Shown piece after piece: positions 45,001-51,000 of a stretch of 64,000 nt of DNA. The stretch spans positions 448,001 to 512,000 of the forward strand of contig CBDFJG010000004.1 in NCBI GenBank assembly GCA_965248445.1, written 5' to 3'. The position numbers are program-made. Numbering within the stretch: position 1 is the first letter of the stretch; every line of letters begins with the position of its first letter. The DNA is from Planctomycetota bacterium. GTDB lineage: Bacteria; Planctomycetota; JAJSAM01; JAJVHW01.

Positions 45001-48000
45001 CGCTCACGGTGTCTCTCCCGGTTTCCAAGTCATTGCCTTCGACTTCATCACCCGGCACTCGCGCACCGGACCGTTCACGACGAGCCCCAGTTCCCGCAGC
45101 TCCGGCAGGCGGCGCGACGGCGCGTGTCGTTCCATCTCGACGCCCTTCGCGATCTCCGCCGCTGTGCGTCCCGGGTGCGCGGTCACCCACGCGAGGATGG
45201 TCTCCCGCTGACGTGCTGCGCGTCCGCGCGCCTTGTTGGCGGCGAGGTGGCTCGTGAGATTGTCTGTCGCTCGTGCCCGTGGAGACGGGGGCGTGTCGAA
45301 GAGGGACCGCTGACGGATCACGCGATGTGCTCCCATCGCTTCCGCAGGACGATCTTGCTAATCGCTCCGTGCCACACCCCGTACCTCTCCGCAAGGCGCT
45401 GCTGCGTGCCCCTGGGAGCGCCCGGCCCGCACACGCGGCGGATGTAGCGAACATTGTCAGCGGTGAACTTCGCGTGGCAATGCCGCTCTCCGCGCTGTGA
45501 CCGACCACGCTCCACCATGCCGCGGAGGTTGTCGGCTGGCGTACCGACGACGAGGTGCGCTGGGTTCACGCAGGGCGGGTTGTCGCATTGGTGACACACG
45601 AAGAAGCCCGGCACGACTGTCGCGCGATGATGCAGCTCCCACGAGACAACATGGGCACCCGCATTCGTTCGGCAGTTGCGGCGAGACGATGCGTTGATCC
45701 GTCCGTACCCTGCGGGCTGCCGCGAGCCCGTCCACAGCCAGCACTCGTCGGGGGCGGCGCGCTCAACCTTGTCCCAGAAGCGTTCCTCGAACGTCGGCCG
45801 CGCGCGTCGGGGGCAAGCGCACATCCATCGGTACTGACGTTGCCCCTGCCGGACGCCACTGGACCGCTGCGACACTCCGCAATGGGGGCACGCAGCCGGT
45901 CCGTTGTCGATCTTGGACGGGACGCGGGGCCTGCTCATGCGCCACACCCGCACGGCGTCCCGCATGGCGGCTCGCCCGTCTGCTGACTCATCCTGATCTC
46001 GTCTGCGGTCGGCGGGACCTCGCCCGTGCCCCGGCACGCCTCGCAGTAGCCGTGCGCCGCTGCGATCTCGGGGTGCGCGTCCTTGCAGGCGTCGAGCACG
46101 TCGACTAGGACGCGCCGGTTCTTGACCGTCCCGTCAGCCAGCGTGAGGCGAGCGGCGATGAACTCGCGGTGGTTCACGACTCGCCTCGGCGCGCGTACTC
46201 CTCGCGCAGAATGACCCCGGCGACAAGATCCAGCCCTGCGCTTGGGTCTCCGGCCCCGTGTCCGACGCGGCACGACACTTCCGACTTGAGGCGAAGCGCC
46301 GCCCGCGCGATCCACTCACGAACTCGACGAGATGCGCGACCGGCTCGACAAGATGACGGACGAGTCCGAGCGCCTGCGCGACAACGTCATCGAGGCTGTC
46401 GTCGACCGCCTCGTCAAGACGCGCGCAAAAGCGGACGAGGGCATCGTCGAGCGCATCGAGTCGCGGATCGAGGACCTCGGCGAGCGCCTCACGGATCTCG
46501 CCAAGCAGGCCGCGAAGCGCGAGAGCGCGGGCGGCACGGCCCTCGACGACCACATGCGTGACATCGACGAGCGGTTCGCCGCGGTCGAGCGCGCCTCCGA
46601 GAAGGTGAAGGAAGACGCGGTCGCAACGCTCATCGACCGGATGGCGGACCGCGACGCGGGCGTCGAGAAGATCTTCGCGGAGAACCTGGTCACGCAGCTC
46701 GACACGGTGACGTCAAAGATCGAGTCGCTCGAGGAGCGTCTCTCCGCAGCAGGTGGCGACGAGCAGGAGAAGGTGCGCGTCGCGATTGAGGAGCTGACCT
46801 CGGCCGCGAAGGAGAGCGACGAGTCCGTGCAGAGCTTCGTCTCGGCACAGCTGGAAGAGACGCACGCCGAACTCCTCACGGAGCTGAACGAGCGGTTCAA
46901 CAAGCGCGACACGGATCTCTCCGCGTCGTTCCGCGACAACTTCGACGAAGTCCGCAGTTCGGTGGACGAGTTGGCGTCGCGGACGTCTGCGCAGCTCGCC
47001 GCCATGCAGGTGAGCCTCGCATCGGGTGTCGACTCGCTTCGTGACGAGAAGGGCTCGGGCGTGAACGTCGACCTCGTCGAGGCCCTCGAGTCGCGCGTCT
47101 TCACGCCGCTGAACGAGAAGGTCTCGGATCTCCGAGAGCAGGTCGACTCGCGGCACGAGGACGCGCTCAGCGCCGTGGCCGCCGCGGACGAGCGCGGCAA
47201 CGCGCTCGCCGAACGGCTCGAACAACTCGCCGAGTCCTTCGCCGGTCTCGCTAACCGCGTGGACGAGAACGCGGCAGCGCAGACACGCGCACTGGAGACG
47301 CTCGGCGAGCGTCTCACCGCCAGTTCGAGCGACGCTGCGGAGGCGCAACAGGCGCAGTTCTCCGCCGCGCTCGAACAGGCCCTCGACAAGATCGAGAAGA
47401 CAATGCACTCGGCGACAGCCAAGCCCATCGAGATCTCGGCCGAAGCCACCGACGTGCTGCTGAACAAGATCTTCGACGCCGGCGACGTGGAGCTGAGGAG
47501 CAACCTCGATCAGCTCGACGTCGACACGAGCAAGACAACCAGCGTGAAGAAGAACCTCGGACGTCTCCGGAACCTGCGCAACGCCAAGGCCGCGCAGAAC
47601 AACGGAACCGACGACGAGTCCTAACTAGCCCAAAACTGCTGCGGTTTGCCGGACGATGAAGCCGGCTGGGAGGAGCGAGCAAGATGACACCTGACCCCAA
47701 CACTCACCGATATGAGGAACCCGGAACCGCGACGACCACGCCGCGGGCCGCCGTGGCTCCGCCGGCGCCGCCGCCGGAGGCGACGACCGTACCGATCGCG
47801 TCCAACGGACAGCCGCCTGCCGTGGCGGCCGCGCCGCCGGCGCCGAGCCGCGTAACGATCCACCAGGACGCCCACGTCACCGCCGCGCCGAAGGGCGTTG
47901 CACTGGGCCGCGGCCTGGATGTCGGCACCGCGAACCTGCTCGCGTGCCGCGAGGGCAATAAGGGCGAGCTCGTGGTCCAGAGAGAGCGCAACGCGTTCCT

Positions 48001-51000
48001 CGAGATCCCGAGTGAGTTCGTCGGCAGCCACGAGATGCTGACCAAGCTGAATGTGCCATACGTCCAGTTCAAGGACCGCCTTTACGTGATCGGCGACGCG
48101 TCGTTCAACCTCGCGAACATGTTCGCCCGCGAAGTGCGCCGCCCCATGGCGGACGGCTTCCTCTCGCCGGCGGAACAGGACGCGATCCCGATGTTGAAGT
48201 TCATCGTGCACCGCCTGCTCGGCGAGCCCAGCACGCCCGGAGAGCACGTGTGCTTCTGCATCCCGGCGGAGTCGATCGACAAGGCGAACGACACCGTCTA
48301 TCACGAGGGCATCGTGTCGGGCATCCTCAGGAAGCTCGGCTACACGCCGCAGCCGATGAACGAAGCGCACGCGATCGTGTACAGCTCGCTCGCGGAGCAG
48401 GACTTCACCGGTATCGGTGTGTCCTGCGGCGGCGGCATGTTCAACGTGTGTGTCTCGTACCGCACGATCCCCGCGCTGACGTTCTCCGTCGCGCGCGGTG
48501 GCGACTGGATCGACACGAGCGTCTCCCGCGTCATGGGCATCCCCAGGACGCGCGCCACGGCGATCAAGGAGAACAACGTCGACCTGCGCGAGCCGAAATC
48601 GCGCGAAGAGGAAGCGGTCGTTCTCTACTACCGCAACCTCATCCAGTACGTCCTCACGAACCTCAAGCAGCGCTTCGCGCTCGCTCGCGACGTGCCGCAG
48701 TTCGAGGCGCCCGTCGAGGTCGTCGTAGCCGGTGGCACCAGCCTGGTCGGAGGCTTCGTAGAGGTCTTCGCCGAGGAGTTGCAGAAGGTGGATCTCCCGA
48801 TCCCCATCGCCGGCGTGCGCCGTGCCGACGACGCCATCTCGGCCGTCGTCCGCGGATGCCTGATCGCCGCGAACCTGAGTTCCGACGAAGACTAGCCAAG
48901 TCTCGAGAGCGCGACGCCGGCGTCCTTCGGGACGTCGGCCCGCGCAGCTCGTTCCACCCGCGGTCCGCCCGTTGAAGCCAAGCGCATCCGCGTTCGGTGG
49001 AGGGCGGGCCGCACCTGATTCCCGCCATACCGAGACCGGTACCAATCGGCGCACGGTGTCCCCGGACGCCGCGTCCGGGAGTTCAGCGGCCCGGCACGTC
49101 CCAGTCGCGGTGGACGCTCTCGGTCACGCACGCCGCCGCGAGCGCCACATAGTCAGGTCTGCATCGCAACGCCAGGCGGTGCGAGTCCAGCAGACCACGG
49201 GCGGTGGATCGCGTCATCCGCAGCAGCGCGGCAATCTCCATGAGCGACAGGCTCGCGAGCGAACGCAGCAATCCGACAGCCAGCAAGTCCGCCGGATCGC
49301 GTGAGCGGGCGCCTGGTGCCGTTCGAATCGCGTCGAGCCCGTGCGCACGCTCCGTCACTACTGCGACAACTGTCCGCGAGTGAGCGACGGGAAGTCCCGG
49401 CTGTGTCCCGTCAGCCAGCGCGGTCTTGCGGCGCATCCACTCGATCGCTCTCCCGTCAGCACCGTCGAGGAGGTCGACGAGCGGATCGTCCTGCCCGTCA
49501 CGAGCCAGAAGGCGTCGATCGACCAGCGCCTCCTGCTCGGGAGTGAGCCGTGCGCCGAACACCGACTCGTAGTCCTGACTGCAGTAACTGGTCGAACCTC
49601 GAGCCCTCATCACGCGCGTCGCGACCTCCCCGTGGCTCAGCCACTTCGGTCGGCCTCCGCAACGGTAGAACCGCGCGCTTCCCCACGGGTAGGCCGACGC
49701 ATCGCTGACGAGCCCCGCGGAGACGGCGTTTCCATCGATGTACCGGATCAGCGTGTGCATGTAGGCGTCGGATTGCACACGCTTGGAACGGAAGCGACCG
49801 CGGAACAGCGGTCCATCGCGGCGCCTCTCTCTGTTGAACCGACGGGCGTACGCGTTCTGAACGCGCCTCATGCCACGCCACATCGAACCAGTGGGGCTCC
49901 GAACCAGCAGGTGGAAGTGCGTTGTCAGGAGGCAGTACGCGTGGATCTCGAGCGATCCGCCACGCACCGCACGCGCCAAGCAGGCGAGGAAGTACCGGCA
50001 GTCGCTGCGTCGTTCGAACAGTGTCCGCTTCGCGACACCGCGGTTGTAGACGTGGTGGAATGCGAAGGGCTCGTCGTGTCGCGCGCGCTGTGCCATCGGC
50101 TCCTGCGGTGACGAGGACGCAGGAGTGAGCGCGCGGGTTACACCGTGCGCCGATTGGTACCGGTCTCGGTATGGCTAGTTGACGCGCTTCCAGACGTTGC
50201 CGTCGCGGCCGAGCACTCCGAACGCGATGTTCCGGCCCCCCATGTTGCGACTGCTTCCGGGGGCGGTGAACGCATAGCCCGCCTCACGCGCCTCGATGCC
50301 GTTCGGTCCGCTACGTGCAGCGCCGTCCTGCTCCGAACCGGTGATGTCACCGGCCTGGTTGATGAAGAACGTGCGCCACCCCGACGAGCCACCCGTGGCA
50401 GGCCACGCGTACGCGCACCAGATCGTCTCCGCCAGCGTGCTGTCGATCAGCCCCGGCGCGGCCGAGACCTCGAGCGTCGTGAGAGTCAGCTCGCCGAGGG
50501 CGTCCCCGTTCGTGTTCGGCAAGAAGACGCGGTAGTGGTAGCCGCTCCGCACGACCTCGCCGTCCGCGTTCAGCGCTCCGAACGACTGCGACAACGCGGT
50601 CGGCCAGAGGACCGTGCCCCCGGCGGCGGTCCCGTCGGCAGCCGTGCGAACCGGAGTGGCGCTCGCGAGCTCCCGGAAGAACCCGAACTCGCCCGTGCCG
50701 TTACGGTCGACGTCTGCCTTGGCCGACGTCTGGAACTGGGCCTGCGCCGAGGAGATGCTCCGCAGGTGTGCGATGGCCGCCGCCTCGTTCGCCTGCAGCC
50801 GGGCCGCCATCATGTTCGGGATCGCCACCGCAGTCAGGATCGCGATCATCGCGACCACGATCATCAGCTCCACCAGTGTGAATCCCCCGGCACGCCGTCC
50901 CGTGCGCGCGCCTCGACCGCTATCGAGCCGGCTCATGTGAGTGTCTCTCTCTTTCTCTGCGTTCCCCTTGAAAGCTCTCCAACCCGGCTATCGGCAGGAC

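Follow-up and report, generated by a model that had tools for sequence, protein, structure and literature searches.

A volactin gene and the 3' part of its coiled-coil partner gene beside phage-derived DNA in a planctomycete

The volactin gene and its surroundings

The window (the whole 64 kb stretch of planctomycete DNA analysed here) contains two adjacent open reading frames on the plus strand, separated by 59 nt. The downstream one (47684..48895) encodes an intact volactin-family actin-like ATPase of 403 aa, identified by its PF25216 match and by aligned invariant columns. The upstream one (46332..47624, 430 codons) matches the conserved C-terminal block of a partner (adaptor) family, lacks the N-terminal block of that family, and is treated below as the 3' remnant of a partner gene. 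The pair is preceded by a siphovirus-like, phage-derived region of ~37 kb (8812..46290), recognized by PHROGs and Pfam matches. It is followed by an IS200-like Y1 transposase-like gene on the minus strand (49083..50096; PF01797 at 22.8 bits, just below the cut-off of 23), which lies between inverted copies of one sequence: the same peptides, MRRLVPVSVW and HTETGTNRRTV, are encoded at ~49.0 kb on one strand and at ~50.15 kb on the other.

The volactin protein consists of a Pro/Ala-rich extension (residues 1-75) and an actin fold (76-396), the latter matching PF25216 with 274.9 bits (cut-off 35) over model positions 3-321 of 321; MreB_Mbl scored 18.7 bits, under its cut-off of 27. Every invariant column of a 40-sequence alignment is retained, including GLDVGTAN (78-85), SCGGGMFN (247-254) and GGTS (350-353), which we take to be the phosphate 1, phosphate 2 and adenosine loops, respectively. 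By sequence profile, the solved structures nearest to the volactin group were 5ljw, 5jyg and 5ljv ('Actin-like ATPase', E about 0.003-0.005), presumably all MamK, and MreB (1jce) ranked behind them with E 0.27. The genome holds one volactin copy and, elsewhere on the same contig, a canonical MreB (458 bits); a gene of the FtsZ/tubulin family was not detected in the genome, which is 92% complete. Volactin homologues at 64-78% identity occur in 7 of the 16 other genomes of the order, and their identity tracks kinship (69-78% within the family, 64% in the sister family). The genome-wide survey's note had already described two real ORFs, a full-length volactin (274.6 bits) coexisting with a canonical MreB, and homologues at this identity in 7 of 16 genomes, all of which was recovered here. 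In our own sample of Planctomycetota, the PF25216 family was present in 148 of 401 genomes. Bacterial volactin itself is not new, as planctomycete homologues are named "volactin" by NCBI.

A three-part partner family upstream of volactin

At all eight extended loci, which come from 6 genomes, the gene immediately upstream of volactin on the same strand encodes a partner homologue, and the last 110 residues of these homologues are 33-61% identical. Both this arrangement and the invariant C-terminal residues (alignments A1 and A3) agree with the earlier note, which had also regarded the C-terminal block as the sole conserved part of the partner. The latter view had to be abandoned, since an N-terminal block was found as widely or more widely. 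In Planctomycetota, the partner family is built of three parts: an N-terminal block of ~100 aa, a coiled coil whose length varies widely, from about 40 to 600 residues, and a C-terminal tail of ~80 aa with the consensus ..ATA.P....EATDVL...FD....E..SNL..L.V.. The N block was detected in the ORF upstream of volactin at 28/28 loci, at 15/20 further loci from other families and at 71/80 loci of a separate scan, in which the gene order was again that of the close loci; the three sets have genomes in common. It also stands at the N-terminus of 116 of the 117 proteins retrieved by the tail profile alone, and a tail without N block was met at none of 80 loci. Almost all genomes matched by the partner profile (27/28) belong to the 148 volactin-bearing ones among the 401. 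We found no published description of this family. Volactin and its conserved upstream coiled-coil partner form a real and widespread module, and it is the N-terminal block, not the tail alone, that defines the partner family.

As for the N block of the orthologues, neither Pfam nor NCBIfam gave a match, neither a ribbon-helix-helix nor another DNA-binding family was detected, and a Foldseek search against the PDB returned nothing at E <= 0.001. An AF2 monomer model of an orthologue's N block has helices at residues 3-16, 22-27, 38-56 and 62-105; residues 28-37 are basic and unstructured.

The tail is predicted to contact volactin. In the interface list of the complex prediction, the contacting part comprises residues 368-416 of the window's partner (47433..47579, plus strand), namely an amphipathic helix (EATDVLLNKIFD), two short strands (VELRSNL, DVDTSK) and the beginning of the final helix; alignments A3 and A5 show invariant or near-invariant residues in this part. 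With larger alignments, the prediction reached ipSAE 0.77, 0.74 and 0.74 (median 0.74) against 0.10 for the best of three controls, reproducing the docking reported previously. The runs had at least 83% of contacts in common, with a partner pLDDT of at least 63; the docking mark applied is attained in 116 cases among 157 solved complexes and in 2 among 215 mismatched pairs. In the model, the tail helix and two strands pack on the actin fold at its subdomains IA/IB and its C-terminal helix. From the model score and the gene order, we infer that the tail is probably the volactin-binding element.

Such binding could also serve a role other than that of an adaptor. In the model, the tail spreads over a large area of IA/IB and of the C-terminal helix, where it might hinder or promote filament contacts, and no cargo is known. 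Centromere-like arrays of iterated repeats were absent upstream at the four loci inspected; upstream at three orthologous loci, short repeats occurred in no more than two copies, none was seen at the locus of the stub described below, and the window has one two-copy family. The partner might regulate polymerisation, as a nucleator, capper or sequesterer, or it might be a coiled-coil protein that is unrelated and simply co-transcribed. However, linkers are usually built in this way, with a conserved second domain beyond a coiled coil whose length varies, and the co-occurrence with volactin (27/28 genomes) is tight, so that we regard a non-adaptor role as rather unlikely.

The partner gene is split in the assembly

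The window's partner ORF retains the long-helix/coiled-coil region and the C-terminal tail. Its AF2 model (pLDDT 74) consists of helices at 2-63, 70-139, 144-240 and 246-363, the C-block HMM matches residues 336-423 with 109 bits as the only family-block match on the ORF, and the conserved tail residues of the family are all present (A3, A5). Homology to the orthologous partners begins only at their residue ~167-185, and the N block is missing from the ORF as it is from every one of the window's six frames. The breakpoint zone (46287..46331, plus strand) consists of an in-frame stop (46287-46289) followed by 14 open codons to the first ATG. When eight orthologues were compared with 45001-47700 by tblastn, the alignments started at 46278-46335, and no in-frame similarity was seen upstream of the breakpoint. 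The start of the remnant coincides with the end of the phage-derived region, of which the last ORFs (45318..46315, minus strand) are an HNH endonuclease gene (45318-46037, matching HNH_3 and phrog_1872) and a 126-aa ORF (45935-46315) that matched no family in Pfam or PHROGs.

Among 79,646 six-frame segments of the genome, a single N-block signal was obtained, from a stub of 33 codons on contig 3, at about 1678690 (E 1e-4). It breaks off after GKRK and represents the first ~32 codons of the partner gene. The 160 nt upstream of it form an AT-rich leader (48% G+C versus 69% for contig 3) which, by eye, resembles the leaders of four orthologues. The genes beside the stub are phage-like; downstream, genes for a DnaA_C-HTH protein, DUF5131 (PF07505) and an IS3 transposase were found. 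Because the leader and first ~32 codons lie on contig 3 and 430 codons lie on contig 4, the partner gene is split between the two contigs as assembled. At least residues ~33-100 of the N block are missing from the assembly, and a second, full-length partner copy could possibly sit in unassembled DNA, the genome being 92% complete.

These observations bear on the module as the genome-wide survey's note had proposed it. Its core, a volactin with an upstream coiled-coil partner and a tail predicted to dock, is supported; not supported is that the two-gene module is intact, with the 430-aa protein (g03409) as its complete partner. In favour of completeness, the ORF is open with gene-like codon composition, the conserved tail is kept, and its predicted docking scores well. 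Yet it is the sole one among the examined partners without the ~100-aa N block (0/80 loci, 116/117 proteins), its start abuts phage DNA, and the first ~32 codons with the leader are found on another contig. We therefore consider an intact volactin-plus-adaptor module largely refuted already and very unlikely. The remnant may nevertheless remain expressed and functional, and "damaged" may be too strong a word for it, because its 430 codons are open, its third-position G+C of 0.89 is as in real genes, and the tail residues are kept.

The split could alternatively stem from a false join of phage and chromosome during assembly, as the genome is metagenome-derived, comes from an environmental sample and is in four contigs. 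Moreover, exact repeats with copies elsewhere in the genome (8472-8804 and 8812-11143) make up the phage region's left border, and the assembly path there is less certain for that reason. The right junction, however, lies in unique sequence and is bridged without difference in the separate assemblies of each of four runs of one sample: in every run, a 37,939-nt contig matches 45000-48000 with zero differences, the run contigs stopping at about 49052. This sample is probably the assembly's own source, and the runs are hence not independent; no alternative joint was reported among them. In addition, the stub on contig 3 marks another breakpoint of the partner gene, apart from the one in the window. 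An artefact of this kind thus appears extremely improbable.

The phage-derived region carries structural genes on the plus strand (TerS, TerL with a LAGLIDADG insert, portal, head morphogenesis, scaffold and major head protein, then neck, tail tube, tape measure and a J-like protein). On the minus strand are genes for RusA, an exonuclease, a SpoU methylase, RecT/Bet, an SbcC-like ATPase, a MarR-like protein and an HNH endonuclease. The region yielded no integrase, tRNA or att repeat, no direct repeat longer than 15 nt links its two borders, and a scan of viral contigs with the RecT-like protein gave no relative. ParM-type systems occur on plasmids and prophages, and the pair is contiguous with the phage genes, one 37.9-kb run contig spanning both to about 49052. 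The pair could also be phage cargo, an actin system for positioning or partition of phage DNA, with the right end of the phage beyond volactin. Against this, PHROGs holds no family for either protein, the neighbours at the eight close loci are ordinary, non-syntenic chromosomal genes, and volactin identity follows kinship (see above). Neither would phage cargo explain the stub with its native leader at a separate chromosomal site. We judge this origin to be quite improbable.

Interpretation and comparison with known actin systems

The reading that we prefer, with a probability of roughly 0.7, is that of a chromosomal volactin next to the 3' part of a dedicated three-part partner, whose gene was split in association with mobile DNA, the tail binding volactin and the N block serving as an anchor. 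Both pieces of the gene adjoin mobile DNA: on contig 3, phage-like genes and an IS3 element come after the stub, and on contig 4, the 430 codons and volactin are set against the end of the phage region. ParR and MamJ are known to link their actins to cargo. By analogy, a dimeric coiled coil may tie volactin filaments, gripped by the tail, to whatever the N block binds, for example a site on the membrane, some cellular structure or a further protein. The surviving ORF would then keep actin binding while losing the function of the N block and the native promoter. The organism may run its volactin with a crippled adaptor, or it may be losing the system.

More tentatively, volactin and its three-part partner might constitute a second, dedicated actin cytoskeleton, with the tail gripping the filament and the N domain fastening it to a cellular site, and the present genome would offer a natural case of separation of function. 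We consider this wider proposal possible, though doubtful. If it is true, over a third of the sampled planctomycete genomes would possess a second actin cytoskeleton, and here mobile DNA would have removed the N domain and native promoter and spared the filament-binding half and the actin. Planctomycetota are known for unusual division and cell shapes. To our knowledge, volactin has been studied in one archaeon only, where its binding factors are unknown; a partner conserved at both ends and lying in front of volactin at most loci with a close homologue is a concrete candidate for filament attachment or control. The window copy is a poor type specimen of this module and a useful natural truncation.

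In ParM/ParR systems, the C-terminal tail of a small adaptor binds the actin. The present pair resembles ParMRC and CorMR in having two adjacent genes, for an actin-like ATPase and for a putative adaptor, whose C-terminal tail is here predicted to bind the actin. In contrast to ParMRC, the partner lies upstream of the actin (ParR lies downstream) and has a long coiled coil, and the actin belongs to PF25216, not to ParM. CorMR is reported to be a chromosomal ParMR turned cell-shape cytoskeleton (10.1101/2025.06.27.661541). In magnetotactic bacteria, actin-like filaments of MamK and Mad28 are reported to act together with coiled-coil (Mad) proteins, by which a cargo is positioned (10.1101/2025.02.24.639979, PMC12713370). 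The likeness lies in an actin-like filament protein with a coiled-coil partner, seen here at the level of genes, whereas magnetosome genes are absent from this genome.

VolA of Haloferax volcanii (HVO_2015) forms dynamic filaments whose tips touch the membrane and is needed for timely rod-to-disk change; filament formation and a cell-shape role are known for this volactin only, and its archaeal neighbour HVO_2016 is co-regulated with it (PMC10869688 and its supplement). The planctomycete protein, known here from its sequence, is a full-length member of the same Pfam family, PF25216. Unlike VolA, it begins with a Pro/Ala-rich extension of 75 residues, has a partner from a family whose tail profile has no archaeal-named protein among the matches listed, and resides in a bacterium that also has MreB.

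A three-part partner gene upstream of volactin

The window carries a 403-aa ORF (47684-48895, + strand) preceded, after a gap of 59 nt, by a 430-aa ORF on the same strand (46332-47624), and third-position G+C is 0.89 in each, as in real genes of 68% G+C DNA. The 403-aa protein scored 274.9 bits against Pfam PF25216 (Volactin; cut-off 35), its residues 76-396 matching model positions 3-321 of 321, while its MreB_Mbl score (18.7 bits) lay under the cut-off. All invariant columns of an alignment of 40 homologous sequences were kept. A single-sequence search found no close relative of volactin among solved structures; the nearest entries in a profile search were those named 'Actin-like ATPase' (5ljw, 5jyg and 5ljv, E 0.003-0.005), with MreB 1jce ranking behind them (E 0.27). 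It is the only volactin in the genome (5.40 Mb, 4 contigs, 92% complete), in which canonical MreB is also present (458 bits) and no match to the FtsZ/tubulin family (PF00091) was detected. A scan of 45700-49300 returned no promoter-like site and three terminator-like sites, all on the - strand and no more numerous than in shuffled sequences; no RNA data were listed among the four runs containing the stretch.

The 430-aa partner matched no family above cut-off. It was modelled as long helices (residues 2-63, 70-139, 144-240 and 246-363; mean pLDDT 74), after which come two more helices, a short one (370-382) and a final one (404-423), separated by a stretch modelled at low confidence. The genome-wide survey's note had counted volactin homologues of 64-78% identity in 7 of 16 other genomes of the order, a count that we reproduced. 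Its second observation, a partner homologue directly upstream on the same strand, held at all eight extended loci from six genomes, the last 110 residues being 33-61% identical. Neighbours at these loci were ordinary chromosomal genes, and neither shared gene order nor phage genes were found among them.

All eight close orthologues of the partner open with a conserved block of ~100 residues, the N block (consensus M.r.AL.giG.VIKA.T.EKs.DELRAqGKkRVRVVSg.RVM.IIQAIVDDTI..EvGEI.KRDRDRIv..t...F.RvLKMQ), which the window protein lacks. Separate profiles were made for the N block and for the conserved C-terminal tail (C block). In six-frame searches, the ORF directly 5' of volactin contained the N block at 28 of 28 loci besides the window, 22 of which were also matched by the narrow C profile. 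Among 20 further loci, from genomes not caught by a first, cruder profile, the N block was upstream at 15. As for the five exceptions, i) two were actins just 23% identical to the window volactin, ii) one was a homologue 37% identical to it, and iii) two were partnerless volactins bearing an acidic extension of ~470 residues. A separate scan with one genome per species placed the N block upstream at 71 of 80 loci (64 of the 69 where the upstream DNA measured 2400 nt or more); both blocks were present at 32 of the 80, and a C block alone at none. The three locus sets (28, 20 and 80) overlap in some genomes.

A broader tail profile found 190 proteins. The N block stood at the N-terminus of 116 of the 117 new proteins listed from this search, and the best 120 of the 190 matches were solely unnamed or planctomycete-named proteins. 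When 1.84 billion representatives were searched with HMMER, the family profile found 126 proteins at E <= 0.001, a figure that the dedicated N profile shows to be an underestimate; a word-based search with the window protein's tail as query was too insensitive and returned just five. Volactin was present in 148 of 401 Planctomycetota genomes in one sample, and 27 of the 28 genomes matched by the crude partner profile belong to these 148. From the N-block and C-tail counts it follows that members of the family consist of an N block, a coiled coil of ~40 to 600 residues and a C tail, and the window protein is the sole member seen without an N block.

Several variants of this arrangement were also encountered. 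Partnerless volactins whose ~470-residue acidic N-terminal extension carries repeated GPMT(V/M)AA.(E/Q)M motifs occurred at two loci (L074 and L075) in two genomes of one planctomycete family. At two other loci, L067 (contig C185 of genome G222) and L054 (genome G292), an N block was found with no volactin gene nearby: one opens a frame of >1900 residues, the other lies in a 501-aa ORF, the volactin of its genome being on a different contig. Some planctomycete families have tandem volactin pairs 0.5-1.5 kb apart (e.g. genomes G025, G137, G250, G374 and G387).

The partner gene of the window is split

Similarity of the window ORF to its orthologues starts at orthologue residue ~167-185 and reaches the start of the open frame, which is bounded by an in-frame stop at 46287-46289; upstream of this, no similarity to the orthologues was found. 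A profile search, followed by a six-frame search of 79,646 open segments, gave a single N-block signal in the whole genome, at ~1678690 of contig 3. The stub located there reads MQRSALKSIGKSIAASAEEATLEDLKRTGKRK. It matches the first ~32 orthologue residues, then turns into unrelated sequence and meets a stop 17 codons on, and N-block residues ~33-100 at least are absent from the assembly. The 160 nt 5' of the stub have 48% G+C (69% for the contig) and contain a motif which, judged by eye, is common to the leaders of four orthologues. Since the stub with its leader lies on contig 3 and the ORF in the window, the gene has come apart: its first codons remained with the promoter region, and its final 430 codons are elsewhere, together with volactin; mobile DNA adjoins each piece. 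The note had presented the pair as a two-gene module; the module itself is real, but the copy in the window is disrupted, its N block missing.

The stub is preceded by an aldo/keto reductase gene and followed by two unassigned genes, a DnaA_C-type HTH gene, a DUF5131 gene (PF07505), more small genes and an IS3-type transposase. On the window side, the partner ORF borders a phage-derived, siphovirus-like region of ~37 kb (8.8-46.3 kb; 8812-46290), whose last ORF ends at 46315, the partner ATG being at 46332. Its genes run in virion order from TerS at the left border to recombination genes at the right. The + strand encodes packaging and head proteins (TerS, TerL, portal, head morphogenesis, scaffold and major head protein) and those of the connector and tail (adaptor, neck, tail terminator, tail tube, chaperone, tape measure and J-like), and the - strand RusA, exonuclease, SpoU methylase, RecT/Bet, an SbcC-like ATPase, a MarR-like protein and an HNH endonuclease. 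Replication-type genes such as DnaA_C HTH and DUF5131 are usual in such phages; here they lie beside the stub on contig 3 and not in the phage region. Two stretches of the TerL ORF (9535-12135, 866 aa) match phrog_979, and LAGLIDADG_3 is matched at its residues 280-328, in what looks like an intein or homing-endonuclease insert. No integrase was seen among the ORFs scanned, no tRNA at the phage borders, no direct (att-like) repeat >15 nt between the two borders, and no relative of the RecT-like protein in one scan of viral contigs.

The left phage border consists of repeats that recur with 100% identity elsewhere in the genome. The repeat 8472-8804 recurs at 387450-387782 of contig 4, the contig of the window, and part of it (8637-8804) recurs inverted at 1951474-1951307; one and the same trio of small ORFs (78, 382 and 140 aa) lies beside both. 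A second repeat of 2332 nt (8812-11143; TerS and the 5' part of TerL) recurs at contig 3:153054-155385. These repeats suggest either that mobile copies have recombined or that the assembly path is uncertain on the left side; the right junction, at the partner ORF, is untouched by these repeats. In each of four runs, all from one sample that is probably the source of the assembly, that junction is covered by a 37,939-nt contig (window ~11114-49052) with zero differences, and no alternative joint was reported there. One relative shares synteny with the window across the left flank (593-7060), and in comparisons with the nearest relatives nothing tied this flank to the stub locus or the volactin side. 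We can only guess at the course of events; plausibly, an insertion interrupted the partner gene and mobile copies then recombined with each other.

Downstream of volactin, an IS200-like Y1 transposase-like gene (49083-50096; PF01797 22.8 bits, just below cut-off) sits between inverted copies of a single sequence (~49020-49054 and ~50145-50180), an arrangement like that of REP-associated transposases; the run contigs stop in this region. Further downstream of the pair is a pilin-like gene on the - strand (50175-50936; N_methyl, DUF2950), whose homologues (47% identity) in two related genomes (loci L012 and L013) are the immediate upstream neighbours of the partner gene, in divergent orientation.

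Predicted docking and a possible role of the partner

The docking of the partner tail onto volactin that the note had predicted was reproduced with larger alignments (volactin residues 70-403, 40 rows; partner residues 330-430, 29 rows). The ipSAE was 0.77, 0.74 and 0.74 (median 0.74), against 0.10 for the best of three controls; the runs had at least 83% of contacts in common, with partner pLDDT of at least 63. Of 157 solved complexes 116 attain the tool's ipSAE mark, as do 2 of 215 mismatched pairs, counts that are only a rough guide when own alignments are used. Predicted contacts on the partner fall within residues 368-416, where the model shows a helix EATDVLLNKIFD, the beginning of the last helix and two short strands that pair with volactin residues 125-128 and 96-101. 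Three partner residues of this part, F381, D382 and N391, are invariant. On volactin, the predicted contacts are residues 88, 95-101, 116-131, 136, 138, 168-178, 205-217, 233-241, 260-261 and 382-401, which, going by the usual order of actin-fold elements, would belong to subdomains IA/IB and the C-terminal helix.

We propose that the partner acts as a dimeric coiled-coil linker, whose tail would hold volactin by this docking while the N block binds something else. DNA as that cargo is unsupported, since Pfam and NCBIfam gave nothing above noise for the N block, its AF2 model (pLDDT 73) had no Foldseek match in the PDB at E <= 0.001, and no centromere-like repeat arrays of the parC kind were found upstream; the target is as likely to be a membrane or a protein. 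The partner could conceivably be a nucleator or capper instead. Under the linker model, the window remnant would keep the actin-binding half and lose the N block and its native leader.

Relation to known actin systems

Several planctomycete homologues (5 of 120 clusters listed) already bear the NCBI name 'disk-shape morphogenesis protein volactin', and a bacterial volactin is therefore not new. Among the papers found to name volactin, one also mentions planctomycetes, and it does no more than list both in a tree of actins. The 'actin-like protein' of Uab amorphum was rejected as a volactin, as it is a eukaryote-like actin. We found no published description of a partner of volactin. What is new here is the N block as a defining part of the partner family, and the window copy as a split gene.

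The linker model fits the report on H. volcanii volactin, which describes dynamic filaments with tips that reach the membrane and binding factors that are unknown (PMC10869688). Actin-like proteins together with coiled-coil proteins are also the subject of the Mad28 papers on magnetotactic bacteria (10.1101/2025.02.24.639979, PMC12713370), the available portions of which make no mention of volactin. The volactin-partner module is real and widespread, and it adds an unpublished variant to the actin-plus-adaptor systems.
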